Assembly: GCA_963932905.1 (NCBI GenBank) | Contig: CAWVRN010000012.1 | Location: forward strand, 1 to 64,000 | From: an uncultured Bdellovibrio sp. | GTDB lineage: Bacteria > Bdellovibrionota > Bdellovibrionia > Bdellovibrionales > Bdellovibrionaceae | Length of the DNA: 64,000 nt | Direction: 5' to 3' | In this document: in pieces, positions 3,001-57,835 of the stretch | How the letters are laid out: every line of letters starts with the position of its first letter | Position numbering within the stretch: position 1 is the stretch's first letter | Program-made: the position numbers and the translations under genes | The notes under the pieces: model-generated | What the model was told of the DNA's origin: nothing | The model's input: the letters and a program-made list of their open reading frames with translations, nothing else | The model's database searches: none

Positions 3001-5307
3001 GAAGTTTTTTGACCTATCAATTAATTCCTCAAATATTCGAATGTTCTCAGACCCAAATTCCGCTTGGTTTAAAATATCGCAGTCGATTCCCTGAACTAGA
3101 CTGCTAATAAAAATTAGATCTTTAGTTAGATTGTCGACAACTCTATTTAAGCCGGATAGGTCAGAAATTTTCATTTCTGAATATTCAGGCATTTCCGAAC
3201 TAATTTGCTCGGAAAATGCTATATCTCCAGCGCTTACGTTCATTGGTATCAATTCGTTAAGTTTTTTGCGATCAGCAGCATTTCCAATTTTAATGAAATC
3301 AGACAATTTTCCAGAGAAGTCCTTAATAGCGACGAATTCTATACTCTCCAAAACTGATATATTTTCGGTCAAAAAGCCAATTCGAACAGATTTCGTATCA
3401 AGGATTACCTGAAGGTATAAGTCCAAATTGCGATGAAATCTTTCGCCTGTAACGTCATATTTTGCGCAATTCAAAACTTCCACGGTGGCTTCTAACTCAC
3501 CTATTTTAATATTTATCTTTTCTATTTCTTTGACGAGTGATTGATTTTTTAATTTAGAATATGAGTAAAGACCCTTTAACGCCCAAGGATGACGTTTTGG
3601 TTCACCATACTTCAACGTAATCTCACCTAGAAGAAACGAAAAATCCCTAACATAGTCCAATTCTCGTACAAATTTCAACTCATCAAAAACTTCAGGGACT
3701 TCTACTCTAGCGTCGAAAGACTCCACATTATCAAATCCAATATCTTCGAGAGTAGATTTTAATGAGGAATATTTTCCGACACACTGTAAATAAGATTCTC
3801 TCACTCCGGTCGGAACTTTACCAATGGTAGATACATAGTCGTTTACTAGATCCTTCGATTCTTCGAAATTAGTTCTTACCAAATGTATTTGGCCGGGAGA
3901 TTTAAAATTTGTAGTAATTCGTCGTTTCAAGGAGTCTAGAACAGTTCGCTTTTGAATTTTCGTGCTATGAAGTTCTAAGCAAAACTCTCCAAGCCCTGCT
4001 TCATCGAGACGTTTCTTTACAACCTTAAGTGCAGCTAACTTTTCAGCGATAAAAAGGACGTGTTTTCCTTCGCCGATAGCCGCTGCGATGATATTAGTGA
4101 TGGTTTGGCTCTTCCCAGTACCGGGGGGGCCTTCGATAACAACGCTCTTTCTCGCGAACACATCAACCATGGCACTATGCTGAGAGGAGTCGGCATCAAA
4201 TATTAAGCGCGGAAGCAACTTCGGACTTACTTTGTCGATAGGATGGTCATCAGCAAACCCTCCAGTTGATTCACTCGAAACATCCCCGATGCCAGTGACT
4301 AAATTGCGAATTAGCGGATGGTCACTAATTTTAGTTCCAGCCCAATTGTCAGGATCTAAATCACGATGCAGAACTAGCTTTCCAAAATTTAAAATACAAA
4401 GATTTACTTCAGATTTTACTTTCCACAATGGCTTAGCCTTTTTTATAATTTCCTCGACTAAGCTGAGATAGTTTTCCAATGAGTCAACGACAATACCCTC
4501 TTCGTCGGAAGCATCAAAATTCACTGTCGGAAAGTTTATTCCAAAATCTGACTTCATCTTTTCAATCAAAGAAATATTGGGTGTAGGGCCTTCGCTAGAA
4601 GATGAGATTACAAAGGAGTAGAACGGATCGCCAGTCTTGGGCTTGGTTCTTACTATCTCAACCGGTACAACAACAAGCGGCGAAATTCGTTTTTCTTGGC
4701 TAGTATCCGAATCCGAATATTCCAGTGCTCCGAAAGTTGCATGGAGCAAATTATTTCCGGTTTCCTCGATAGCTGATTTAGCCAGGCCATAGATTCTTGT
4801 AAGTGTTCGCTCTAATTCATCAGGATAAAGCAAGGTTTGAATGTCATTATCAACAAATGCTTTTGCAGTTTTTCCTTCGTGAGATTTATCCAACTCGAAA
4901 CTGGGATTAATCCCTAACTTCTCTGCATATTCTTTGATGGGAGGTCTAATCTTTGAAGGTACTTCGGTTTCTCTTGAGGGGTCACTTTTGTCTTTTACTT
5001 TTACGACTCCATCAACAAATTCCTTATCCTTAGGCTCCGGAACCGCGACAAAAGTTAAACTCGTATCATTTCTTAATTTCTCGAATAGAAAATGCGGAAT
5101 CTCGTTTACTACCCGAAGAGTTGATTTAGTACTGTATTTAAAATTTAGAAGTCTATTTCTATAGGTTAAATCGAGCAGTTTATTTTGTAGAGTTTTTAGG
5201 TATTTAGAAGTGGTCATTTCCACTAAGTTCTCGGTTTTTAAGGTTACTTTCTTTAAAGGAAATATATCAAGTAAACCAGTTGAAACTTCTCCCTGGCCTT
5301 TCGGCAC
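25..5307 (-). CDS. DUF4011 - SF1 (AAA_11/AAA_12) helicase - Vsr-like/DUF559 nuclease, Hhe-type anti-phage protein; C-terminus probably truncated (ATG at 5217 is the likelier start)
   Basis: N-terminal KLLDLTYRNRLLNF; Walker A GPPGTGKS; DEASQ; HYRS; VQGDEKD; RRLNVLFSRAK; FDSPFE...GIECDGATYHSSKSARDRDRLRQ...W.IHRIWSTDWF. Confidence 0.9.
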   Translation of the reverse strand: MPKGQGEVSTGLLDIFPLKKVTLKTENLVEMTTSKYLKTLQNKLLDLTYRNRLLNFKYSTKSTLRVVNEIPHFLFEKLRNDTSLTFVAVPEPKDKEFVDGVVKVKDKSDPSRETEVPSKIRPPIKEYAEKLGINPSFELDKSHEGKTAKAFVDNDIQTLLYPDELERTLTRIYGLAKSAIEETGNNLLHATFGALEYSDSDTSQEKRISPLVVVPVEIVRTKPKTGDPFYSFVISSSSEGPTPNISLIEKMKSDFGINFPTVNFDASDEEGIVVDSLENYLSLVEEIIKKAKPLWKVKSEVNLCILNFGKLVLHRDLDPDNWAGTKISDHPLIRNLVTGIGDVSSESTGGFADDHPIDKVSPKLLPRLIFDADSSQHSAMVDVFARKSVVIEGPPGTGKSQTITNIIAAAIGEGKHVLFIAEKLAALKVVKKRLDEAGLGEFCLELHSTKIQKRTVLDSLKRRITTNFKSPGQIHLVRTNFEESKDLVNDYVSTIGKVPTGVRESYLQCVGKYSSLKSTLEDIGFDNVESFDARVEVPEVFDELKFVRELDYVRDFSFLLGEITLKYGEPKRHPWALKGLYSYSKLKNQSLVKEIEKINIKIGELEATVEVLNCAKYDVTGERFHRNLDLYLQVILDTKSVRIGFLTENISVLESIEFVAIKDFSGKLSDFIKIGNAADRKKLNELIPMNVSAGDIAFSEQISSEMPEYSEMKISDLSGLNRVVDNLTKDLIFISSLVQGIDCDILNQAEFGSENIRIFEELIDRSKNFVRNYPEKLEQSLLFLPDSISVRELSDLVHRNIDLKNSIEGVFLSTTFEYNMDQVIEKLNNLQSANWFNCLFIKKYSEARDWLKRNLIDSSDLSYSKNSVALNKLRQYLIFKSEIEQKPIFIKLAQHQSEISTANLHDLLVRISDLKEIHNLFGKMGASEDLVPSTLKRLGICEKVSPSFVELVVASEKSLIQLKIARPKFVETNSLITSLAITKEKLEKFFKWNLTAKLMEYRLSDIREPLEIVVQYGELKTKVDSASESYERFHFSTTEPVKLLSELNSLIAYVEKIKGFEINETEENQFFSPKTISFLNTFELELTDIQNARLEVFKFCNDLGILRFDIEAVGFCKFAEAIERALENKETLYEYENYVEIREKLNSTIYASVIPKITKIPTNPNGLRTLCEFIFYRSVLHNHIAKNNSLSYFDSGRHELVREKFRTLDKELINLNRTEIAYQLSRQIVPKGNSTGKRGTWTQLALIEREVEKVQRHIPLRQLVKRSGDALQALKPCFMMSPLTVAQFLPPGVIDFDLVVIDEASQIKPEDAFGAIARAKQVVVVGDTKQLPPTSFFDSNMEDSEDVEEEFESILEQAAGTFRPARRLRWHYRSKHESLIAFSNSQFYDNDLVLFPSATAKHEDLGVKLRKIPSGIYEGSGKNLIEAQAVVSAVKDHAHRHSRRSLGVVTMNIAQKELIDDLLYNECKSDPILSRFVNGDEGTSEEFFVKNLESVQGDEKDVIFISVTYGRDKVGAFHLRFGPINSKNGYRRLNVLFSRAKERMEVFCSFEPGLIPANSSRGANALRDFLEFAETGELKTSILETGRSFDSPFEMSVANALERRGYMVKAQVGVAGYYLDIGIQNPTKPGEFILGIECDGATYHSSKSARDRDRLRQENLEKLGWKIHRIWSTDWFRNERREIESVIRKIESILGNQEKKAINISERIDFSKLTSFKQELKKMLVNLREQINNDLPQVPPENGILRKRVLDCRISAIMYQ

Positions 5308-47083: not shown

Positions 47084-48565
47084 TTAACTTTTACAATTCG
47101 ACAACACATGCAAAGGCGCCCGGCGGATGTTGTTTTTCTTGTTGAACTTGTAGGCGAAGCTTTCGATCAAATTCACGTTAAATGTGTCGACGATGTGGTA
47201 ATCCTTTAGGGATTCTTTTTCTTGAGTCCAAATGAAATCATTCACGATGATGGCGGCTTGGCAGTTGTTGGCGGGTTGGTCCTTCACCGCTGACAGGGAT
47301 AGGTCTACGATATTATAGCCACGATTCAAGAAAATAAATTTCTCGGGTAGCCATTCGATTGTTTTTTCTAGATTGTAGACGGTCTTGATGCTGTTGTGTT
47401 TATCGATAAACAGGGCCGCGTTGATGATGTTTTTCTGTGACGGAAAAAAGCTGGCGTTGATTAAGATGAATACATTTAAAATTCCCATCGTGATCAACTG
47501 CCATTTTTTCACGGGCCACATCAACACCAGTCTTGCAAAAAATGGTGTCATCAGGACAATCAGTAACGGCACAATGGAAACCATAAAGCGTTCAAATTTT
47601 TGCGGGAAGTAGGAATGTAGCGCCACGAACAAGAGAATAAACACCCAGGCGTAGTTGAGTTTCTTGAACACTGGGCCGGCAATACCTTTGCCTGTGTTGT
47701 TGAACCACAGGAACGGGAAGAATGTTAAGCCCAGCAATAATCCAGGATAGAACAAGATAGATCCATTTCCATATTCGTGGCCATGTTCCACGTTGTAAGT
47801 CAGCACAGCCACCAGCGAATGGTGAAATCCACCGCGCAAGAAAATATCGGGAATGCCTGCCAGCACAAAGCACCCAAGGCCCACGGCCGAACTGACGATG
47901 ACTCCTTTGAAATCTTTTGCAAATAGCAACAACAACGGAATCGTAACGGCGCCAATACCGGCCTGCTGGCGCAGAACGAAAGCCATGCTGACAGTGATGG
48001 TAGCCCAAACAACATCCCACATTTTGCCTTCGGATTTATAGCGATAGAAAAAAGCCATTGAAAATAAAATCCACGGCGCCGCCAAAGATTCAAACATCGG
48101 GCGAGTTAAAGTAAATGAAGATGCAAAATAGAACGTAAACAGAAACAAGAAAACTTTCTGACACAAATCTTGCCAGCGCTGGGAATTGACGTTGCCGGGT
48201 ATTTTAAAATCAGAACCAAAATCCCATAAACGAACTGATTGAATAATTTGAAACGACAAAAGGTAGATCAGTAAATTAAAAATCGTGATCAGTAAAATAG
48301 TAAATCGATATTGATCGTAGGGATGAAAAATTCCTAGTTTCAGTGCAGCCTGCGCACCTAAATGCATTGGCATTACTTGCAACGGTGATTTTACGTCGGT
48401 TTGATCGACCAGATCTGTGTAGGTAGATGTCTGAGCGGGCAGATATTTAACCATGGCGTTCCAGTACTCGTCCGTACCCATGAAACCATCATTAACGAAA
48501 GCCACTAACAAAAAGAAACCAAGAAAAATTACGGTCGGATTTAGTTTTTTAAATAAAGTACTCAT
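47084..48565 (-). CDS. GT-C fold membrane glycosyltransferase (PIG-B/Alg9-like)
   Basis: TDEYW after first TM; multiple TMs; QKFERFM. Confidence 0.7.
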   Translation of the reverse strand: MSTLFKKLNPTVIFLGFFLLVAFVNDGFMGTDEYWNAMVKYLPAQTSTYTDLVDQTDVKSPLQVMPMHLGAQAALKLGIFHPYDQYRFTILLITIFNLLIYLLSFQIIQSVRLWDFGSDFKIPGNVNSQRWQDLCQKVFLFLFTFYFASSFTLTRPMFESLAAPWILFSMAFFYRYKSEGKMWDVVWATITVSMAFVLRQQAGIGAVTIPLLLLFAKDFKGVIVSSAVGLGCFVLAGIPDIFLRGGFHHSLVAVLTYNVEHGHEYGNGSILFYPGLLLGLTFFPFLWFNNTGKGIAGPVFKKLNYAWVFILLFVALHSYFPQKFERFMVSIVPLLIVLMTPFFARLVLMWPVKKWQLITMGILNVFILINASFFPSQKNIINAALFIDKHNSIKTVYNLEKTIEWLPEKFIFLNRGYNIVDLSLSAVKDQPANNCQAAIIVNDFIWTQEKESLKDYHIVDTFNVNLIESFAYKFNKKNNIRRAPLHVLSNCKS

Positions 48566-49488
48566 TATTGCAGCTGTTCTTGTATCCAATCCCAATACGC
48601 TGGGATGTAGGTATAAAATATCTGTCCTTGTTCACACAGCTTTGATTCCGTTGTACTTTCAATATACGAAGCGACACCCATAATTTTATAAGAGCCATTT
48701 TGCGCAACTAAAAGTGGCCCACCTGAATCGCCACTGCAACCACCATGGGCGTCCAATTGATTAACGCTGACCAAACCCGAACGATCGATTAAATTCACCG
48801 AGTCTTTCACTAGCATCAATTGATCCCAATTCTTAGTTACATAACGAAGTTCTGGTAAAGAGTCATCCGTTGTATGTGTGCGTCCGTAACCAATCATAAC
48901 CATTTGGCTGGCGGGATTGTTCATTTCTTGGAGAATATCGACAGGAACCAATGGCAAAGGCGAATAATCGGCAGGCAATAGGCCTTCAAATTTTACTGTG
49001 GCGATATCAAAATCAGGTGACTTGCTAGACGGAGACGTTTTATGGCGATACTGAGGATGAATATTCACGTTATTGGCGGAAAACACCAATCGTTTGTTGA
49101 ACCCACTAGAGCAAAACAAGTTAATCGAAGCAATGATCTGAGTCGATATTGTATTCTTTGGAAAACAGTGCGCCGCTGTTAGTACTGTCTTTTCATCAAT
49201 CAATGTACCTGTACATAATGTTGATAAAACTTCGGAACTGAAATCATCTTTTTGAAATCGCGATAGAACCATCACCATATGATTTCTAAGCGGATTTGTT
49301 TTATCCGCTATGTAGCCATTGACGATGCCGTCAGCGTAACAACCGCGAGAGGCATCAAAAGGATATACCTTTTTTGGGGGTTCTACGGGTTCGGTCTTAG
49401 AAACCGTTTCTTTCTTTTGGCAGCTGACTATTGCTAGGGCGGCCACAACCATCATGAGTATTTTGCGAGGACGATCCATATCCATCAT
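48565..49488 (-). CDS. Trypsin-like serine protease lipoprotein
   Basis: Lipobox VSC; LTAAHC; DIA; GDSGGP. Confidence 0.92.
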   Translation of the reverse strand: MMDMDRPRKILMMVVAALAIVSCQKKETVSKTEPVEPPKKVYPFDASRGCYADGIVNGYIADKTNPLRNHMVMVLSRFQKDDFSSEVLSTLCTGTLIDEKTVLTAAHCFPKNTISTQIIASINLFCSSGFNKRLVFSANNVNIHPQYRHKTSPSSKSPDFDIATVKFEGLLPADYSPLPLVPVDILQEMNNPASQMVMIGYGRTHTTDDSLPELRYVTKNWDQLMLVKDSVNLIDRSGLVSVNQLDAHGGCSGDSGGPLLVAQNGSYKIMGVASYIESTTESKLCEQGQIFYTYIPAYWDWIQEQLQ

Positions 49489-49633
49489 ATATTAAGGATA
49501 GGCAGTATCAGATAACGCTGTCAAAAGATTAGACAGCTGTCGGGCGTATAATTTTGGAACGGTATAGAAATGGCATCTAATGATGATTCAGAATGGCATG
49601 AAAGGCGCAATAACGTTTGGCAAGGAGCTTTAT

Positions 49634-50557
49634 ATGAAACGTGCTTTTTTAGTGTCTATTGCAGTGTTCACTTTTGTGGTTGCGTGTGGAAAAAAAGATA
49701 AAAAGATGGGACAGGCAGGAAAAGCAGGCGGTCAAGCGCAAACTGATTGTTCTGGCAAAAAAGCAGAAACCGATGAGTGCAAAAAAATCGCGGCAGAGGC
49801 AGCAGCTAAAGCTCAGCTCGGTACACCAATTGACAATGGTGAAGACTTAGCCGCATCGGGTGCTGACATAGCCAAAGACGTGGTCGAAACGATTCCAAAT
49901 GTGAATGACAAAGTTTTAAATGAACAATCGAAAATGAGCATCACATTAAGTGATAAAACAGCGTTAGTAGCTGATTTACGAATCAGTGCTGATTCTAGTG
50001 ATATGATAGCGACTAAAGTTTTATGCGCCGATATCAAAGATCCAAATGATTTGAAAGAAGTCAACGTAGCCAATCCAGATGATAAAAAGGATATTGGTGC
50101 GCATATCTTATTGTTTAATAACTCATCGATCGCAGCGGATCTAACTGTGAATAACGGTGACAAAACAGTAAAGCCAAAAACGTATTTATTAACATGCAAT
50201 AGCAGTTCAAGTGCGAAAGCGTCTGATTACCTAGATGAAAAAGGAAACTCGAAAGTTAAAGAAGTCGAAGTAAAACAATTAAAAGTCGGTCAGCAGGCTT
50301 TTGAAATTATCCAAAAAGGTACAAGCGCTGATACCGGAGTGTTAGCTTCGTTCGAATGCACTTCCGATAGCGACGTGCTAAAAAGCAAAGTCAAAATGAT
50401 CGGCAAAAAAGCCGCTAATAGAATCCATTTAAGACAAGGTTCATCCGTAATGGTTTTCCGCGCTATCGATGTTAAAGAAGGCGACAAGAAAATCAAAGAA
50501 CTAGGTTCAGACGCTCAGAAAGAAGTGAAAAGTACAGTCGTTACTTGTAACGGTTAG
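49634..50557 (+). CDS. Lys-rich hypothetical lipoprotein
   Basis: SD aaggag; lipobox VAC. Confidence 0.8.
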   Translation: MKRAFLVSIAVFTFVVACGKKDKKMGQAGKAGGQAQTDCSGKKAETDECKKIAAEAAAKAQLGTPIDNGEDLAASGADIAKDVVETIPNVNDKVLNEQSKMSITLSDKTALVADLRISADSSDMIATKVLCADIKDPNDLKEVNVANPDDKKDIGAHILLFNNSSIAADLTVNNGDKTVKPKTYLLTCNSSSSAKASDYLDEKGNSKVKEVEVKQLKVGQQAFEIIQKGTSADTGVLASFECTSDSDVLKSKVKMIGKKAANRIHLRQGSSVMVFRAIDVKEGDKKIKELGSDAQKEVKSTVVTCNG

Positions 50558-50584
50558 TTGGAAATTGAAATAGAATTTGAAGAC

Positions 50585-50618
50585 AAGGCGATGCTTGGAT
50601 AAGCGTCGCTTTTTTTTT
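50585..50618 (+). terminator. Rho-independent terminator
   Basis: gcgatgctt-ggat-aagcgtcgc followed by T9. Confidence 0.85.
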
Positions 50619-50746
50619 GGATATGCTTAGATGTAGAAGTTAGGACTTGATCTGAAAGTCCCTGCAATTAGTTTATATATCGTCTGACGGTCATTGAAGT
50701 AATGGCACATATTGTACCGAGGCGCTGCTAGTGGTACGCTCATAAT

Positions 50747-51736
50747 ATGAGCGACAGAAAACTGATTTTTAAAAATGATCGTGCCGCCGCGGCGTTTGGC
50801 AAATTTCGGGATCGTATTTACTTCGAAATTTCAGCACAGAAAGGGAGCCGCTTCGCGAGCCATTCTACCTGGCTGAAAGCCATTTTCCTCTTTACGGGTT
50901 CGGTCGTAAGTTACTCTGAATTATTAGTAGGTGCTTCTAATCCTAAAACGTCGTTACTTTTGGGTTTGGTATCCGGGGTCTCGATTCTCCTTTTCGCACT
51001 GAATGCCTCTCACGATGCCGCTCACGGTGCATTCTCGCGGCATCCTTGGATTAATACCATCGTGCTCTACATCCCTTTTAGCATCCTTGGTGTTGATCCC
51101 GAAATGTGGCGGATAAGACATCTGAAATCGCTTCATAAATTCCCGAATATCGACCACTGCGATGCCGACATTGATGAAAATCCGTTTGTTCGCCTTTGAC
51201 CCAATCAGCCCAAAAAATGGTGGCACCGATTCCAGCACTGGTACGCGTGGTTTTTGTACTTGGTAGTCGCATTTCATGCCGCATGGATTTAAGACCTCAA
51301 TTATATGAAACGCGAAAGTCTTGCCAACATGGATGACTGGCACGAAAAAACACCCTCATGGATGCGATTCCTTACCCTCAAAGTTCCGCACGTTTTCGTC
51401 TTTTATGTTCTTCCACTCATTGGAACTCACTTTTCTAGCGAGGCCGTGTTTCCTAAGATCGTTAATGGTCACGTCGGCTGCAGCTACGTCTCTCATCAGT
51501 TAATCACAAGTGTGGACTGGTACCCTTTTTCACAATTTTGGTGTGGAATTATCGGTGGACTTAATGCTCATGCCGCTCATCACCTCTTTCCGAAAGTAAG
51601 TCACCGTCACTATTTTTGGATTTCCGGAGCCATCGGTGAGTTTTGCCGAGAAAATGATCTAGTTCACAATCATGTCGGCTTACTAAAGGCGATTCGCAGT
51701 CATTTCAATTTTTTGAAACACCTTTCGCGCAATTGA
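50747..51736 (+). pseudogene. Fatty-acid desaturase pseudogene
   Basis: His boxes HDAAH and HAAHHLFP lie in one frame broken by TGA 51197-99 and TAA 51290-92; middle box degenerate (HLKSLH). Confidence 0.85.
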
Positions 51737-52058
51737 TTGAGGCAAAGAACCATACATTCTGACTTCGATGCCGCCCGCACTTGCCTAGCTTTCTCGGCCA
51801 GACTATGGCGTTTACACGCCGCTTGGCCATCTCTACTTAGCTTTTTGAAGCCCCGGTATCGGAAAGAACGGCGAAGTTCCAGACCTCGCCCATCGCGGAT
51901 CGAAGTGCCATTCTCGGTTTCGTTTCTAGATCACTGACAATGAAATTCAATAGCCAATGTTTCATAGAACCGATTGGCATGGGCTCCGTGATTATTTCGA
52001 CACTGTCCAGTCATTAGAGCTCAGGTAAGCATATCCAGGCTGCGATAATTAAGTAGGG

Positions 52059-52397
52059 CTAGTAATCACACCAGCCATTGTAACTGTGATCATCAGAAAG
52101 TGCGCCAGTTTTCAGACTATAGCAGAACGACCTATAGGCAGCGAAACAATTTGGAGCACTGGGGTGTGGTTCGGCATTATAGTCTATACAACATGTGTAA
52201 GGATCAAGAGATCTAGTCTGACTATTATAGGCTGAAATAGCTTTAACAAAAGGACGAGGCTTTCGTAGAATTTCGTTTCTAGTGACTAAGAGAACTCTGT
52301 TTTTTACAGCGGGAGCTTTGCAAAACTCGTTTGCCCTGCAAATATTAACCCCTAAAATCACTAACATGATGTTTGCCAATAAGATTTCTTTTTTCAT
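52059..52397 (-). CDS. Small secreted Cys-rich hypothetical protein
   Basis: Signal peptide, several Cys, co-oriented after the ABM gene. Confidence 0.6.
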   Translation of the reverse strand: MKKEILLANIMLVILGVNICRANEFCKAPAVKNRVLLVTRNEILRKPRPFVKAISAYNSQTRSLDPYTCCIDYNAEPHPSAPNCFAAYRSFCYSLKTGALSDDHSYNGWCDY

Positions 52398-52416
52398 TTT
52401 TCGTCCTAATAGGTTT

Positions 52417-52809
52417 TTAATTAATAATCTGAACGGTTTGGCCTTTTACCTCGAAAGAGTCCAAAAACGAGTCTGCTGAGTTGGCTTTAATTTCGTTAAA
52501 AAATTTCCGCATATGTTCCGATTTTTCTTTATGCTCAATAAGCATAGCTTCTTTGCTTTTCCAAATTTCATGAAATTCAAATCGATTAGTTGCTTTCCCG
52601 TGTTCATCTATAATTTGGTACCCATAGTAGGAAATACAGCTGGCTTCCTTACGAGTGGGTTCGATGATTTTGGATACCGCTCTTTTAAATTCTTTTAGTT
52701 TTTCTGGCTTTACGACTAAAATTGCTGAGCCTTGCCATACCGTCTCCGCATGAGAGATGTTTGTCGTCATCACCCCAAATATTATTAGTAAAATATTCAC
52801 TACTTTCAT
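52417..52809 (-). CDS. ABM-family (quinol monooxygenase-like) protein with signal peptide
   Basis: VKPEK..EF; TRKEASCISY; FHEIWKSKEA..EH. Confidence 0.85.
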   Translation of the reverse strand: MKVVNILLIIFGVMTTNISHAETVWQGSAILVVKPEKLKEFKRAVSKIIEPTRKEASCISYYGYQIIDEHGKATNRFEFHEIWKSKEAMLIEHKEKSEHMRKFFNEIKANSADSFLDSFEVKGQTVQIIN

Positions 52810-52899
52810 TTTCACTCCTTGTTAGAAAATCCATTTACATTTACCTGAATGGTCTGTAAATCAGTATAAATAGAACAAAGTTATAAGGAAATTTCGAAT

Positions 52900-53790
52900 A
52901 TGATCACTTTTGATAGACTCCGTTATTTTGTTGAAGTAGCGACCACCGAGCACGTAGGTAATGCTGCCAAGATATTAGCAATAAGTCCGAGCGTAATTAG
53001 TTCGGCGATTCGCGAACTAGAGGAAGAGTTTGAATGCCAATTATTTGCTCGCCAGAAGCAACGAATTAAATTAACGGAACGAGGTCAAGTTCTTCTCGAA
53101 AAGGCTAGAGGCATTTTGAAAGAAACAAATCAGCTCTACAATGATATCTCGGCTGAAAATTTTAAATTTAAAGGACACTATAAAGTTGGAGCGAGTCACT
53201 TCCTCATGCAGGAGTATTTAATTCCAGTCTTTCTTGAAATTCAGCGAGATCATCCACAGCTCACAATTGAATTCATTTCACTTGATGCTGGAGTCGCCGT
53301 GTCTCATTTGCTTTCAGGAGAACTGGATGCCGCACTTATTTTTAGATCTTCATACTATAATGAGCTAGAAGAGACAGTTCTCTATAATGGGCAGTTCCAA
53401 ATTGCCTTAAGGAAAAACCATCCTATTTTTAAATTACCTAGCAGTATGATCAGCAAAAGCCTAAATGAATTACCAGCAATTACATTTAGAACTTTTGCAG
53501 GTCCTAATTTTTGGGAAAATCATCCTGCATTTAAAGATATTGGACTTACCCCAAGGCATGCTTATTTTTATGGCGATACGCAAGCAGCCCTTCAGCTTTT
53601 AAAGTCGACTGATGGGTGGGCCTTTTTGCCTGATAAGATTATCAATAAGCATAAGAGTATTCGTAAAGTGAGTCTAACCCGCGTATTAAAGGCGCCAGTC
53701 AATATCTCATTTGTAACAAAGAAGGAGCGCGCTAATAAATTCATCGATCATTTAAAAGGCGTTCTGCAATCAAAGATTAAAAAGTACTAA
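52900..53790 (+). CDS. LysR-family transcriptional regulator
   Basis: LRYFVEVA..EHV..AA..L.ISPS.IS..IRELEEE...LF.R; divergent from the ABM gene. Confidence 0.95.
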   Translation: MITFDRLRYFVEVATTEHVGNAAKILAISPSVISSAIRELEEEFECQLFARQKQRIKLTERGQVLLEKARGILKETNQLYNDISAENFKFKGHYKVGASHFLMQEYLIPVFLEIQRDHPQLTIEFISLDAGVAVSHLLSGELDAALIFRSSYYNELEETVLYNGQFQIALRKNHPIFKLPSSMISKSLNELPAITFRTFAGPNFWENHPAFKDIGLTPRHAYFYGDTQAALQLLKSTDGWAFLPDKIINKHKSIRKVSLTRVLKAPVNISFVTKKERANKFIDHLKGVLQSKIKKY

Positions 53791-53993
53791 TTAAAATGCG
53801 TTTCAATTCATCCAGGTCGAACCTTGCTGACCAGGCCAAAGTGAAATAACGTCACTCTGCCAGACCTGGCTGACCTTACAAATATGTGCCATTCTATCGT
53901 TTTGAGATTTGAGGTAAATGGCGGGATAATTTCCGCCATCGTCCAGTTATGAATGCCCAATCAAATTGTTCGACTAGTGAGAAATAGGTAGAA

Positions 53994-54410
53994 TTATTGG
54001 ACCTGACATGAGAGTGATGTTGAGACGAGGTAGTTGCTTTTATCTTCTAATTTATTAAAGAACTGTGCGGCACCGGTTTGTTTGTCAATTTTTAGTGCCC
54101 GGATGGCTTTTGAACAAGAAGGATTTATGGGCGTATGTTTGGGACACCATACATATGTTAATTCTAGAGTGGAAGGAGTCTCAACTTCCGCTATTTTTTG
54201 TAAATCCATATAGACCGGAGTTTTAAAGGGCGGATTAGCTATAGTTACATAAAGATCTGCCTCTAATCCATAGGTTTTAAATATCTCTGGTTGTACATTG
54301 GTGATTTCAGTCTTTTCGTTATAAACAATACCCTTACAATGAAGTGAATTAATGCTCGCATAACTTATTCCAGCACTAATAAATACGATAATACCTAAAA
54401 TTGATTTCAT
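53994..54410 (-). CDS. Secreted hypothetical protein
   Basis: SD ggagga; signal peptide SYA; four Cys. Confidence 0.7.
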   Translation of the reverse strand: MKSILGIIVFISAGISYASINSLHCKGIVYNEKTEITNVQPEIFKTYGLEADLYVTIANPPFKTPVYMDLQKIAEVETPSTLELTYVWCPKHTPINPSCSKAIRALKIDKQTGAAQFFNKLEDKSNYLVSTSLSCQVQ

Positions 54411-54717
54411 ACATCCTCCAAGTATAAATTGTTCCTGTGCAAGGGTTACTGGTCAACGAAAGAATGATTAACACGAAATTAATGTCATCTCGCCTAAGCT
54501 TTCCTGATCACCTTTATGCGAAATAAGCGGGAAACTACTTAACTGGGCGTTCTATTCAACAAGTGCCTTATTATTTCCGATTGCTCGATGAAATCGAAAC
54601 CTCGTATAAGAAGTGTCAGATCAAGTCCTAACTTCTACAGCTTAGATGATACAATCCCAGTCTACATGACCGAACCAAATCCATCAGCCTCACTCCCGCA
54701 AGACCAACCATCATTCC

Positions 54718-55263
54718 CTAATGATGTTTCTTATGCAACAAATTTTCCGTATAAGCCAGCATCACCGAGCTCAGTAGAAAAACCACATGTATGATCACTT
54801 GCCACATGATTTGATCTTGGGATTTGTCTTTAATATTGATGAAAGATTTTAATAGGTGAATACCGGAAATTCCGACTAGGGCAGTTGCTAGTTTTACCTT
54901 CAGGGCACCGGCGTCGATTTTATCTAGCCAGTCGGGTTTGTCGGCGTGGCCTTGCAGATCGATACGACTGACAAATGTGGCGTATCCGCCGATGATGACC
55001 ATCACCAAAAGGTTTGCGACCATTGTGATATCTACCAATGTCAGCACGCCTAACATCAGTACTTCTTCGGTGATTGTGTTTACCGTGGAAACCAAATGAA
55101 TCAATTCGATCAAAAATTTATAGGCATACAGCACGCCGGCGACGATTAGTCCAACATACAGGGGAGCTTGAAACCAGCGGCTGGAAAAAATTAGGTTTTC
55201 TAATGCGGATTCGAATTGTTTTTTCATGGGTCTATACAAATCTAATTCGGTGTCGTTTGTCAA
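54718..55263 (-). CDS. UPF0114/TIGR00645 (YqhA-like) membrane protein
   Basis: IFSSRWFQAPLYVGL; LVDI.MVANLL.MV..GGY.TFVS. Confidence 0.9.
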   Translation of the reverse strand: MTNDTELDLYRPMKKQFESALENLIFSSRWFQAPLYVGLIVAGVLYAYKFLIELIHLVSTVNTITEEVLMLGVLTLVDITMVANLLVMVIIGGYATFVSRIDLQGHADKPDWLDKIDAGALKVKLATALVGISGIHLLKSFINIKDKSQDQIMWQVIIHVVFLLSSVMLAYTENLLHKKHH

Positions 55264-55272
55264 AATAATATT

Positions 55273-56796
55273 TTATTTCGTGATTGTGCTTTTTAATTTT
55301 TCTGCGGCAGCGAAAATGGTTTTCTTTTTCTTTGAATCCATTTTTTCAACTGTGCGGGCCATCATCGACAGGCGTGGATTCTTTAAAAAGAAAGCCTTAT
55401 GTTTTTCTATAAATCCCCAATACAAACCGTCCACACCATCACACCATGGCTCACTGGCTTTATAACCACCCATTTTACGATAGTAGTTGGAACCACAGAA
55501 ATAAGGTTTTGTCGCAAATATCCCTCCGTCAGCGAATAAGGCCATGCCATAAACATTCGGTCCCATCACCCAATCAGAACTATCGATAAACATTTCCATA
55601 AACCATTTGTGAGCCTCTGTTGGGTCAACCTCTAAAAGTAACATAAGGCTTCCGATGATCATCAATCGTTCGATATGGTGAGCATAACCATAGCGAACAG
55701 TTTTTCGAATCGCGTGATCCAGCGGCGCCACCCCCGTGTTTCCCTTGTACCAATGATCCGTTAGTTTTCTGTTGTGCTTGAAGAAATTAGTGGACTCTTG
55801 TTTTTCAGAATAATTTTGATAGATGCCTCGGATGAATTCACGCCATCCAATCACTTGGCGAATGAATCCTTCGGTTGATGCGATTGGTATTTTGTTGTCT
55901 TTGGCATACGCTAGTGTTTCCTGCACCACTTCCGATGGTGTCAGCAGCCCTGTGTTTAAAAAAGGCGTTAACACCGAATGAAAAACAAAATCGCTGTGTT
56001 GGGGGATCGCATCTTCGTACGGGCCAAATTGCAGCAAACGATCGTCTAAGAATCGTTTTAGCCAAGCCTTGGCCCCTTTACGATCCACGGGTAGCCAAAA
56101 ATTTTGCGACTGTCCCGGGTGTTTAGAAAATAACTCGTCCGTGATTTTGATCACATCCCAAGTGATATCGCTGGTCCTTACCAAAGGTACATCTGGTGGC
56201 ACTATTTTATCTGGCAGAGCCAATCGGTTGTCGACGTCAAAACTCCATTGTCCACCGACGGGTTGGTCATTTTTATCCACCAATATTTTCAAACGTTTTC
56301 TTTGTTGTTCATAAAACGTTTTCATAAACGGCTTTTTAGTTTTGCCGAGATAGTTTTTAAATTCAGTCCGTCCCGTTAGAAACATAGGACTAGGTAAAAC
56401 GGTTACATTCAATTTTAATCGGCTAAAGAGTTTCATCAGTCGTGTTTCGAAAAACTTGTCCTCTATTTCAAAGATAGAAACCGAGGTGATTTTTTTTGAC
56501 GTTATGAATGTCTCGAGTGATTTTTCATAAGATCCAGAATCTGGTGCGAGTTTTTCATAGTGAACGGCGATTTTTTTTGAAGTCAGCTCTTGGGCAAAGG
56601 TTCTCATCGCCGCAAGGAAAAAAATAATTTTGTGCTTATGAAACTTGTAATAGGTGCACAGTTCTTGATCTTCGCGCATAAACACATAATCAATATTTTC
56701 CAAATCGGTTTGGGCTGCTTTTAAGTCAAACAATTGGTTTCCTAGAATGACCAAAAGTGATTTTGATTTCGACGTGTCAGTTGAAAGTGTTTTCAT
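55273..56796 (-). CDS. Bacterial cryptochrome/(6-4) photolyase (PhrB/CryB-related)
   Basis: ILGNQL; HKHKI; EGFIRQVIGWREF; YAHHIERLM; WVMGPNVYGM; ADGG..ATKPY. Confidence 0.9.
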   Translation of the reverse strand: MKTLSTDTSKSKSLLVILGNQLFDLKAAQTDLENIDYVFMREDQELCTYYKFHKHKIIFFLAAMRTFAQELTSKKIAVHYEKLAPDSGSYEKSLETFITSKKITSVSIFEIEDKFFETRLMKLFSRLKLNVTVLPSPMFLTGRTEFKNYLGKTKKPFMKTFYEQQRKRLKILVDKNDQPVGGQWSFDVDNRLALPDKIVPPDVPLVRTSDITWDVIKITDELFSKHPGQSQNFWLPVDRKGAKAWLKRFLDDRLLQFGPYEDAIPQHSDFVFHSVLTPFLNTGLLTPSEVVQETLAYAKDNKIPIASTEGFIRQVIGWREFIRGIYQNYSEKQESTNFFKHNRKLTDHWYKGNTGVAPLDHAIRKTVRYGYAHHIERLMIIGSLMLLLEVDPTEAHKWFMEMFIDSSDWVMGPNVYGMALFADGGIFATKPYFCGSNYYRKMGGYKASEPWCDGVDGLYWGFIEKHKAFFLKNPRLSMMARTVEKMDSKKKKTIFAAAEKLKSTITK

Positions 56797-56902
56797 AAGA
56801 AATTTGTCCTTTGCCAGGGATCAGACTATACTAGCAGAGCAGAAAAGATGACAATTCTCTAATCAAATTGTGATATAGCAAACCGGATCTGGATTGGCTC
56901 AC

Positions 56903-57835
56903 TTAACGATAAAAATTCACACATGAATTGTTTTGTTTTAAAACTTTCTCAAAACGTTTCATGAAAATCGAGGGATGATCGGTTGTAATTCCAGCCACGC
57001 CCATCGCAATTAGTTTATCGGCAGCTTCGGGATCATTCACTGTCCAAGGATTCACATCGATATTTCGGGCTCGAAGATAGGCGATCGAGTCCGAAGTCAG
57101 GTCTTGCCAATTCGGTGCAAATGCAATCGGCTGAAAGTCTTTGATGGCTGATTGAAAATCAATTTTTGTCCAGTCGCCGCGATCGACAAGAAGAATGCGG
57201 GGAATAGCCGGTTGGTGTTTTCGAAACTCAGTTAAAACGTCCCAATTGAAAGCCCGAGCGATGATGGGTGTTTTGATTTTAACTTTGTTAATCACGTCAG
57301 AGGTCGCTTTGGCTAGTTCGGCCATGGGAGCTGATTCGTGAAGAAATTCTTTTTCACTTTTGATTTCAAGATGCAGAGGAATGGCAGGTAGGCCTTGTGA
57401 TTCACGGGCTTGGACAGCTAGAAGAAATTCTTCAAAGGTAATAACCTTCGTGTCGCCCGGTTTTGTAACTAAGTGGTCCGAGTAGGGGATCTGTTTAATT
57501 TGAGTCAGGGTCAAGTCTTTGATCAATACAGGCTCAGTCAGTCCCAAAAAGTCTTCGGGATTTAATTTATAATCATGATAAATTACGGGAACGCCGTCTT
57601 TGGTCAGGTGAACATCGAATTCCACACTAGACGCCTTGATATCCATCGCGTGGATCAATGCCGACATGGAATTTTCACGGTAGGTAAGCCGATCGCCTCG
57701 ATGCGCTGAAATTTCCCAAAAATGTGGGCTGCTATGAGCAGGGGTAGTCAGCCCAAGCCACAACAAGATAGAAATTAATTTGTGCACAATCTTCCTCAAG
57801 GGAATTACTATAGCAAATTTGGATTTGTCTTTCAT
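56903..57835 (-). CDS. Glycerophosphodiester phosphodiesterase
   Basis: AHRG; EN; EFDVHLTKDG.PV.YHD; WTVND; ITTD.P. Confidence 0.92.
   Translation of the reverse strand: MKDKSKFAIVIPLRKIVHKLISILLWLGLTTPAHSSPHFWEISAHRGDRLTYRENSMSALIHAMDIKASSVEFDVHLTKDGVPVIYHDYKLNPEDFLGLTEPVLIKDLTLTQIKQIPYSDHLVTKPGDTKVITFEEFLLAVQARESQGLPAIPLHLEIKSEKEFLHESAPMAELAKATSDVINKVKIKTPIIARAFNWDVLTEFRKHQPAIPRILLVDRGDWTKIDFQSAIKDFQPIAFAPNWQDLTSDSIAYLRARNIDVNPWTVNDPEAADKLIAMGVAGITTDHPSIFMKRFEKVLKQNNSCVNFYR

Follow-up and report, generated by a model that had tools for sequence, protein, structure and literature searches.

Why should five genes unrelated to transposition lie between perfect inverted repeats in a Bdellovibrio-like bacterium, and how could such a block move? 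The locus lies in the window, the whole 64,000-nt stretch of DNA that was analyzed (contig CAWVRN010000012.1 of an uncultured Bdellovibrio sp.). The original prediction described a transposase-free cargo transposon mobilized in trans, with perfect 24-bp terminal inverted repeats (TIRs) and a 7-bp target duplication, inserted just after a terminator. It pointed to an autonomous insertion sequence (IS) with the same ends, sibling cassettes with other cargo, and the empty site as the things to look for, and to a decayed transposase inside the element as evidence against it. The borders of the element are formed by the following features.

50585..50612, plus strand: terminator-like hairpin of the upstream gene, 12 pairs and then a T-run, conserved in the relatives G003 and G006
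50625..50631, no strand: left target-site duplication GCTTAGA, seen in the sequence and fitting the pattern NNTNANN
50632..50655, plus strand: left TIR, 24 bp, beginning with TGT, TGTAGAAGTTAGGACTTGATCTGA; the IS at G000:C3:190772 has the same 24 bp at its left end
54616..54639, minus strand: right TIR, 24 bp, ending with ACA, TCAGATCAAGTCCTAACTTCTACA, sharing 97% identity over 32 nt with the end of the IS at G000:C3:190772-190803
54640..54646, no strand: right target-site duplication GCTTAGA, corresponding to the single copy in the empty-site contig from metagenome run X2

The element thus comprises 4008 bp (50632-54639) flanked on both sides by the direct repeat GCTTAGA. The two TIR arms are complementary at 24 of 24 positions, as predicted, and can be extended to 68-nt arms at 71% identity. 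When up to three mismatches were allowed, the 24-bp repeat matched the window twice and none of 100 shuffled versions. Since TG follows both copies of GCTTAGA, any length from 7 to 9 bp can be assigned to the direct repeat. The predicted terminator is the hairpin directly upstream, and the insertion point lies 13 nt past its T-run. With TGT…ACA termini and a duplication in the range of 2–15 bp, the element has the ends that the available text of PMC10045372 gives for the IS481 family.

The resemblance to IS481-family ends, noted in the original prediction, was borne out by a search for the autonomous partner. The genome of the window (G000) contains the repeat eight times at up to three mismatches (zero for a reversed control), and four of these matches are the ends of two intact 1224-bp IS481-family IS (G000:C3:27890-29113 and C3:190772-191995). 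Their 348-aa transposase scores 279.3 bits against NF033577, “IS481 family transposase” (cutoff of 224), and the proteins of the two copies are 92% identical. The repeat matches the left end of C3:190772 at 24 of 24 positions and differs from the other three IS ends by one to three mismatches; the match between each element tip and the IS is confined to 24–32 nt. No remnant of the resident transposase was detected in the 4008-bp element by tblastn (best E = 2.0). A Pfam scan confined to ORFs of 50 aa or longer, which covered seven ORFs of the element (six of at least 112 aa and one of 66 aa), likewise revealed no transposase family. The element is therefore free of transposase, decayed or intact, as far as these searches reach. 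It lacks a DDE transposase of its own, whereas the partner IS does encode one, and should be regarded as an IS derivative and not as a member IS.

To characterize the target sites of this IS, we surveyed 26 full-length relatives of the resident IS from named genomes of several phyla. Exact 7-bp duplications flanked 15 of them, one had a 6-bp duplication, and 10 had none. In all 15 exact duplications the third base is T and the fifth is A (NNTNANN), a pattern to which GCTTAGA conforms; the duplication at the element thus also has the length made by its parent IS. Inspection of the flanks of both resident IS copies and of the sibling on contig C7 (see below) showed no duplication, nor was one present at two other two-ended members of the family, G007:C7 (2068 bp) and G006:C225 (757 bp). 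An inversion between the two C3 copies was considered as the cause of the missing duplications and rejected, as the swapped flanks also mismatch. Flanks resembling CT(T/A)AG also occur beside unrelated ends (gcttaga at G000:C9 and gctaaga at G002:C144). Such a strong target preference makes identical flanks somewhat less telling.

We conclude that 50632-54639, which has no transposase of its own, is very probably a mobile insertion cassette (MIC) that belongs to an IS481-family IS and would be mobilized in trans. Direct support comes from its ends and duplication, the lack of a transposase, the partner IS, the 7-bp rule, the siblings, and one empty-site contig; the transposase responsible and the chemistry of transposition are inferred. 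The resident IS copies would supply their 348-aa DDE transposase, which would bind the 24-bp ends and move the whole block, presumably by a copy-and-paste route as in other members of the IS481 and IS3 families. Integration would involve cuts staggered by 7 bp in an NNTNANN target; the target used here, GCTTAGA, lies 13 nt past the terminator.

The empty site was found in a groundwater metagenome (run X2), which belongs to a study distinct from that of the best holder of the element, X1. In contig record 14 of X2 (646 nt, depth of 5.97), the flanks are joined without the element: window positions 50588-50617 are followed by 11 other letters ending in GATAT and then by 54640-55244, with one GCTTAGA. 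This single contig documents an insertion polymorphism with a single target copy, though its left side comprises only 30 letters, one below the 31-letter rule of the search, and it contains four extra letters (GAGGGG for TG) compared to a perfectly precise empty site. The flanks of the two alleles are 99–100% identical: left-flank contigs of X2 show 0 differences in 2148 nt, and right-flank contigs show 5 in 605, 8 in 1023, and 3 in 848. X2 also contains pieces identical to the element (records 11–13), so both forms may coexist there. A second run, X4, was rejected as evidence of an empty site; the flanks are present, cover of the element is almost nil, and the sequence diverges at 50619 and 54710, with no joining contig.

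A search of 41 genomes and of fetched junctions of relatives yielded no clean empty site. The element is absent from the locus in all eight species-level relatives examined. In G003 and G006, the terminator leads directly to window position ~56907, and in G005, G009, G001, and G002 it leads to ~58000 or farther. Relatives thus lack the window from 50617 to ~56900 or more, and the whole stretch is therefore variable.

The cargo consists of four open ORFs and one pseudogene.

50747..51736, plus strand: fatty-acid desaturase pseudogene; PF00487 on both fragments, stops at 51197-51199 and 51290-51292, 87-bp in-frame deletion near 51409
52059..52397, minus strand: Cys-rich ORF, 112 aa, open, with a hydrophobic N terminus; from the ORF list, no Pfam match
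52417..52815, minus strand: ABM-domain protein, 132 aa, with a hydrophobic N terminus; PF03992, E = 1.5e-8
52900..53790, plus strand: LysR-type regulator, 296 aa; PF00126 and PF03466, divergent from the ABM/Cys-rich pair
53994..54410, minus strand: 138-aa ORF with a hydrophobic N terminus, its start separated from the right end module by 32 nt; no Pfam match

This is the set of passengers originally listed, with the domain matches expected for the desaturase, ABM, and LysR genes; the Pfam scan returned no match for the 112- and 138-aa ORFs. As in other MICs, the passengers, which include two orphan ORFs, are not related to transposition. The cargo proteins described as secreted are putatively so, judging by N-terminal hydrophobic stretches seen by eye. 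The description of the cargo as decayed has to be corrected: it holds only for the desaturase, and the other four ORFs are open. At E ≤ 1e-5, none of 40 other genomes of the family gave a match to the ABM protein; the 138-aa ORF has a 71% DNA match in G001:C9.

Compared to an intact 358-aa homologue in G003, the desaturase carries the two in-frame stops and a deletion of 29 codons, and it is 83% identical to that copy at the amino acid level and 91–93% identical at the DNA level, whereas the chromosomal flanks are just 80% identical to those of G003. The intact G003 gene adjoins an end of the element family. Filled and empty alleles differ by no more than 1%, whereas the desaturase is 7–9% away from its nearest intact copy. 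Judged from these sequence comparisons, the cargo appears to be mobile and to have been old already when it arrived, and it probably arrived assembled, with the desaturase already dead.

The interior of the element contains parts that resemble its ends.

51811..51914, minus strand: internal copy of the “M” module, a leader-like part of the end without TIR; E = 3e-14 over profile positions 66-170, 98% identical to G000:C20:41088-41191
51915..52046, minus strand: “U” unit (CCTGAGCTC...), which precedes the internal M module on its upstream side and holds the 12-mer TGGATATGCTTA; similar units are found in G000:C9, G000:C2, and G006:C191
53791..53898, minus strand: weak second internal M-like module, E = 1.2e-3 with the end profile and 7e-5 with the end model

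The GC content is ~0.46 up to ~52050 and ~0.37 past that point, and the 12-mer TGGATATGCTTA is present twice, once at the left junction and once, inverted, at 52037 next to the U unit. The GC step and the two internal end-like modules imply that the element may not always have been one unit; it is a mosaic of at least two parts joined at internal end-adjacent modules. Landing of the element inside a chromosomal U unit was tested as well and rejected: when the right flank was compared to four U units, 80–155 of 300 shuffles reached the observed score.

The mosaic structure raises the possibility that the element grew in place, i.e., that a small one-gene cassette inserted and duplicated the target, and recombination between family modules, or one-ended events between them, added the rest later, so that the 4-kb block never transposed as such. 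Such a history would account for the M and U modules found inside the element (51811-52046 and 53791-53898), which are all oriented like the right end, for the GC step near 52050, and for the inverted repetition of the junction 12-mer; most siblings, moreover, are 0.75–2 kb long with one ORF. However, the near identity of the flanks of filled and empty alleles leaves little time for several acquisitions, two stops, the 87-bp deletion, and the divergence of the desaturase. In addition, no intermediate allele was seen, and neither an internal TIR pair nor an internal duplication was found in the element. We therefore consider growth in place unlikely. More probably, parts of different composition would have been fused at the end-adjacent modules of the family before the block arrived whole.

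It is also conceivable that the element is ancestral at the site and that the X2 form arose by secondary precise loss through recombination between the 7-bp repeats. The bridging contig is compatible with gain and loss alike, and coexistence of both forms in X2 would fit as well. But all eight relatives examined lack the element at the locus, the perfect repeats and the duplication point to a young insertion, and repeats of only 7 bp seldom recombine to delete the 4 kb between them, which makes loss very unlikely. Finally, the ends could be what remains of a composite transposon, or of a complete IS whose transposase was lost in place. Although an 86-nt IS end fragment adjoining the C7 sibling demonstrates that IS decay happens in this genome, such an origin is scarcely credible given that the IS match at the tips gives way to ~170 nt of a separate conserved family absent from the resident IS, that the element has no trace of a transposase, and that its two ends share one type of IS end.

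The element has one end module of each of two types.

50632..50725, plus strand: type-A end module, cut short, joined at ~50713 to the upstream region of the desaturase; an 82-nt match to the C7 sibling's left end has 84% identity
54442..54639, minus strand: type-B end module of ~200 bp including the right TIR; end profile E = 4e-41, −35-like TTGACC at 54456

The anticipated siblings were found, the clearest example being the 1.5-kb G000:C7:98559-100071, whose different cargo is a 366-aa orphan ORF; it shares its ends with the element over 82 nt (84%) and 60 nt (83%). The end profile gave 23 non-IS matches in the same genome, and the end model matched 8 of 10 genomes of the genus. The element thus belongs to a genus-wide non-autonomous family with conserved ends of ~200 bp. 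Among loci with an exact TIR in named genomes, the 200-bp module was found at 1 of 79, a figure that says little since the scan demanded an exact TIR. The end module was also considered as a structured RNA, and this reading was rejected: Rfam gave no matches at E ≤ 1, and a consensus of 15 ends computed with RNAalifold had −1.35 kcal/mol, with only a 6-pair hairpin. A promoter scan detected 11 sites compared to 10.1 ± 3.3 in shuffles; because promoter sites are no more common than in shuffles, the −35-like TTGACC is just a hint. The end modules may supply expression signals to the adjacent cargo gene.

MICs, to which MIC231 of Bacillus cereus also belongs, are an already named but rarely documented kind of element, and the element described here is a further case, of IS481 type. 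In the available parts of reports on MICs with ISPfr11 termini in Propionibacterium freudenreichii (PMC2909200) and on mic elements around qnrD in Proteeae (PMC3913671), MICs, like our element, lack a transposase, carry at least one passenger gene between inverted repeats of IS type, are flanked by a target duplication, and have a matching autonomous IS available in trans. Unlike the MICs in those portions of the reports, it has an IS481-family parent with a 7-bp NNTNANN target, 4 kb of mosaic structure with five genes, and genus-wide family ends sharing ~200 bp that are absent from the parent IS. IS481-family elements with cargo between their inverted repeats, including regulators, are represented by TnRErm46/ISRe46 of Rhodococcus equi (PMC6794481), ISArsp12 (PMC6305408), and ISPfr21 (PMC2909200); as far as the accessible text of these sources goes, they are autonomous, with the transposase inside, whereas the element has none and must borrow one. 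Our literature search found MICs of other IS and IS481 elements with both cargo and transposase in print, but no description of a transposase-less cargo cassette of the IS481 family.

Miniature inverted-repeat elements (MITEs) are likewise non-autonomous, with IS-derived ends and mobilization in trans, as we infer for the element; they are short (a few hundred base pairs) and non-coding, in contrast to its 4008 bp and five genes. Very small relatives are nevertheless present in the genus: a 757-bp copy in G006:C225 and a 72-bp TIR-hairpin-TIR unit at G001:C19:37314-37385. Composite transposons are bounded by two whole or partial IS copies, which differs from tips of 24–32 nt followed by another subterminal family.

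Elements of this kind are overlooked by gene callers and IS finders keyed to transposases. Here, one of them would move five genes, a regulator included, between strains 99–100% identical at the locus. The partner IS, the 7-bp rule, and the empty site provide natural evidence that an IS481-family transposase may serve transposase-less cargo cassettes in trans, and NNTNANN with a 7-bp duplication emerges as the target rule for a widespread IS481 subgroup. The end-module family may shape the accessory gene content of the genus.

A broader reading, which we put forward tentatively and consider possible rather than probable, is that Bdellovibrio-like bacteria have a genus-wide system of transposase-less expression cassettes, with the element as one large member. 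Each cassette would consist of a ~200-bp end (IS481-type TIR, terminator-like hairpin, and −35-like TTGACC) immediately preceding one gene, in most cases an orphan and often with a hydrophobic N terminus, and head-to-tail fusion at U/M units would yield multi-gene shuttles. Arrays of integron gene cassettes are loosely alike in having short, promoterless-looking single-gene units in one orientation with a recurring structured junction. The element, however, yielded neither an integrase nor an attC-like site, and movement is explained here by transposase ends and a 7-bp duplication, unlike in integrons. The resemblance is only a lead. If the reading is true, accessory genes would be collected and moved in an integron-like manner by a borrowed transposase, with no integrase.

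The 4008-bp element at window positions 50632–54639 is very probably a mobile insertion cassette (MIC) of IS481 type that was mobilised in trans and inserted as a unit. Its left end reads gcttaga followed by TGTAGAAGTTAGGACTTGATCTGA (50625–50655), and its right end reads TCAGATCAAGTCCTAACTTCTACA followed by gcttaga (54616–54646). The perfect 24-bp terminal inverted repeats (TIRs) and 7-bp duplication described in the original prediction were confirmed: the arms are complementary at 24/24 positions, with gcttaga on both sides. The insertion just after a terminator was borne out by a hairpin of 12 pairs, followed by a T-run, at 50585–50612, upstream of the element. When up to three mismatches were allowed, the TIR occurred twice in the 64-kb window and was absent from each of 100 shuffles. 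According to a repeat finder, the inverted arms stretch to 68 nt at 71%. The gcttaga copies agree at 7/7 positions as direct repeats and at only 4/7 as inverted ones; since TG follows both, the direct repeat is formally 7 to 9 bp long. CT(T/A)AG-like flanks turn up again at unrelated ends, which counts against the reading to some extent, because part of the agreement between the two flanks then reflects target preference.

A resident IS with matching ends was found in the genome containing the window (G000), which bears out the resemblance to IS481-type ends noted in the original prediction. The TIR occurs eight times in G000 at up to three mismatches (reversed control, 0), and four of these occurrences bound two 1224-bp elements on contig C3 (27890–29113 and 190772–191995), 85% identical in DNA and 92% in protein. 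The 348-aa protein that they encode reaches 279.3 bits on the NF033577 “IS481 family transposase” profile (cutoff, 224), covers profile positions 2–284 of 284, and contains HTH and rve domains. The left end of the IS at C3:190772 is exactly the window TIR, and its identity with the right end of the window element reaches 31/32 nt.

A search of one genome per species for exact matches to a slightly degenerate form of the TIR yielded 79 loci. Their titles include Bdellovibrio, Bdellovibrionaceae or Pseudobdellovibrionaceae MAGs, Chitinophagaceae (Terrimonas, Puia, Niabella), Planctomycetaceae, Rickettsia, Legionella, and others. At 26 loci, a partner end lies 1192–1293 bp off and a transposase reading frame is enclosed, with the longest tblastn segment 59–73% identical to the G000 transposase. 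An exact 7-bp direct repeat flanks 15 of these full IS loci; one has a 6-bp repeat and 10 have none (0–2 bp). All 15 exact duplications, ACTTAGA among them, fit NNTNANN, with T third and A fifth. GCTTAGA fits this group in both length and pattern. According to PMC10045372, elements of the IS481 family end in TGT..ACA and make duplications of 2–15 bp, mostly 6. Against the reading, the duplication is absent at the other two-ended copies (both C3 IS, the sibling on C7 of G000, G007:C7, and G006:C225); in two further candidates in relatives, G003:C13 and G002:C255, the ends have degenerated too far for a verdict.

The element encloses the following cargo:

50747–51199 and 51305–51736, desaturase fragments, both matching PF00487
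52059–52397, minus strand, 112-aa Cys-rich ORF without a Pfam match
52417–52815, minus strand, 132-aa ABM protein (PF03992)
52900–53790, plus strand, 296-aa LysR regulator (PF00126 and PF03466)
53994–54410, minus strand, 138-aa ORF without a Pfam match

The three small cargo proteins have hydrophobic N-termini, as judged by eye. No transposase remnant was detected in the element by tblastn with the resident transposase (best E, 2.0). This result, together with the partner IS and the siblings considered below, supports the original reading of a non-autonomous cassette. In PMC2909200 and PMC3913671, MICs are described as IS ends around passenger genes without a transposase, the same arrangement as in the window element. 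IS481-family elements with cargo are also known; those in PMC6794481 and PMC6305408 carry their own transposase along with the cargo, whereas the window element has none. Neither a transposase-less IS481-family cassette nor a comparable cassette in Bdellovibrio-like bacteria was found in the open-access literature searched.

The empty site that the original prediction sought in related strains was found in one metagenomic contig and not, in clean form, in the species-level genomes G001, G002, G003, G005, G006, and G009. In the closest of these, G003 and G006, the left flank is 80% identical to the window and the terminator is joined directly to window ~56907; in G005, G009, G001, and G002, window sequence resumes at ~58000 or later. 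Thus, two neighboring genes are missing there too:

54718–55263, UPF0114 gene (PF03350)
55273–56796, photolyase-related DPRP gene (PF04244)

The whole of window 50617–56900, element and both genes, is absent from all species-level relatives examined, which marks the locus as a hot spot for changes in gene content.

We compared contigs of four public runs with window 48500–57500. One run, X2, is a groundwater metagenome from a study distinct from that of X1, the best holder of the element. Its record 14 (646 nt; depth, 5.97) consists of 30 letters of 50588–50617, the 11 letters GAGGGGGATAT, and then 54640–55244. Window 50620–50624 being GATAT, the order along the contig is T-run, GAGGGG, GATAT, a single GCTTAGA, and TGATAC…. 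This is the unoccupied site with a slightly different spacer (GAGGGG for TG); the 30-letter left side is one below the tool’s threshold for counting a bridge. The remaining X2 contigs are identical to window 48500–50617, and right-flank differences number 5 in 605 letters, 8 in 1023, and 3 in 848, which places the element-free form within the same species-level population. X2 record 10 ends exactly at 50617, where filled and empty forms diverge. Records 11–13, three pieces identical to the element, have lower word depth, which would fit the presence of both forms, contig depth being no measure of their shares.

Past the first 24–32 nt, the window ends are unlike the IS but like other loci. Sibling cassettes with other cargo, as anticipated, do exist: a 1.5-kb element in the same genome (G000:C7:98559–100071) has 82 nt (84%) and 60 nt (83%) in common with the window ends and carries a 366-aa orphan ORF. 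Its right TIR adjoins the final 86 nt of an IS copy (G000:C7:100071–100157; L006/L051), 94% identical to the C3 IS, so that two right ends stand in tandem. Single ends of the family lie on G000 contigs C20, C9, C14, and C4. A family end is a ~200-bp module composed of the TIR, ~45 nt of type A (window left end) or type B (window right end), GAAATAATGGC, and M, a part of ~110 nt. An eight-sequence end profile gave 28 matches on G000, five of them bare IS tips. A 15-sequence model found matches in 8/10 genomes (G000, 25; G006, 20; G002, 11; G003, 9; G007, 3; G005, 3; G001, 1; G008, 1; G009, 0; G004, 0). A bolder but rather unlikely reading is that these cassettes make up a system spanning the genus, in which units would fuse at the end modules of the system itself.

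A same-direction ORF of at least 60 aa begins within 45 nt downstream of 7/21 module copies examined, and 5/7 of these ORFs have a hydrophobic start by eye. Among six sibling cargo ORFs, five lack a Pfam match and one encodes a trypsin-like protease. M holds a terminator-like hairpin (51890–51870), and several copies of M end with TTGACC. The promoter scan as a whole did no better than chance, the end modules yielded no consensus RNA fold, and Rfam gave no match for the module; therefore, we can only infer that it may supply expression signals. G006:C78:7939–12797 packs five end or M modules into 5 kb, three plus then two minus, possibly a multi-cassette array.

The interior contains two further M-like modules, both in the orientation of the right end:

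51811–51914, minus strand, 98% identical to the C20 copy
53791–53898, minus strand, weak match

Ahead of the first lies a “U” unit (CCTGAGC…), also present on G000 C9 and C2 and in G006:C191. GC content is ~0.46 left of ~52050 and ~0.37 right of it (flanks, ~0.40–0.43). In G003:C141 (L024; 2357–4739), an intact 358-aa desaturase gene stands directly behind a degenerate family end, with another module and a SAM-methyltransferase gene after it, all in one direction, looking like two cassettes in a row. This desaturase is 91–93% identical to the window pseudogene, compared with 80% for the chromosomal flanks of both genomes, and this is far above the overall similarity of the two genomes; the desaturase part has therefore moved between species. 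The modules, the GC step, and a desaturase identity above that of the flanks show the element to be a fusion whose parts have separate histories.

Aligned with the G003 homologue, the desaturase fragments form one reading frame with two in-frame stops (51197 and 51290) and 29 codons lost in frame. Two similar short repeats, CTTCCACT and CTCCCACT in the intact copy, bracket the 87-bp deletion (window 51380–51440), as would be expected of slippage or microhomology deletion. Since the flanks of filled and empty alleles differ by at most 1%, desaturase decay and mosaic assembly must predate arrival here, which argues for the 4-kb block having come in one piece.

A point that weighs against the MIC reading is the 12-mer TGGATATGCTTA, of which G000 has three copies. 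Two are in the window: one at 50618–50629 (plus), just outside the left TIR, and the other, 1.4 kb away and inverted, at 52026–52037 (minus), next to the U unit. The 12-mer falls within the conserved sequence of the U unit, which G006:C191 shares, and the right flank of the element shows no likeness to U. The pair may have been left by an inversion or may mark a shared landing site.

Several other arrangements of IS tips were observed. Minimal elements of 57–114 bp consist of two TIRs around a short hairpin derived from the left end of the IS (G001:C19:37314–37385, L030; L067, L085, and L117), with no visible duplication. In OZ250161.1 (~4933–5291; L109), seven TIR-like matches in one orientation form a tandem array of IS tips over ~360 bp. 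The relative G007 has 15 TIR matches over many contigs, 13 of them ~100 bp from a contig end, a pattern pointing to an IS of this group that is high in copy number, was recently active, and breaks the assembly.
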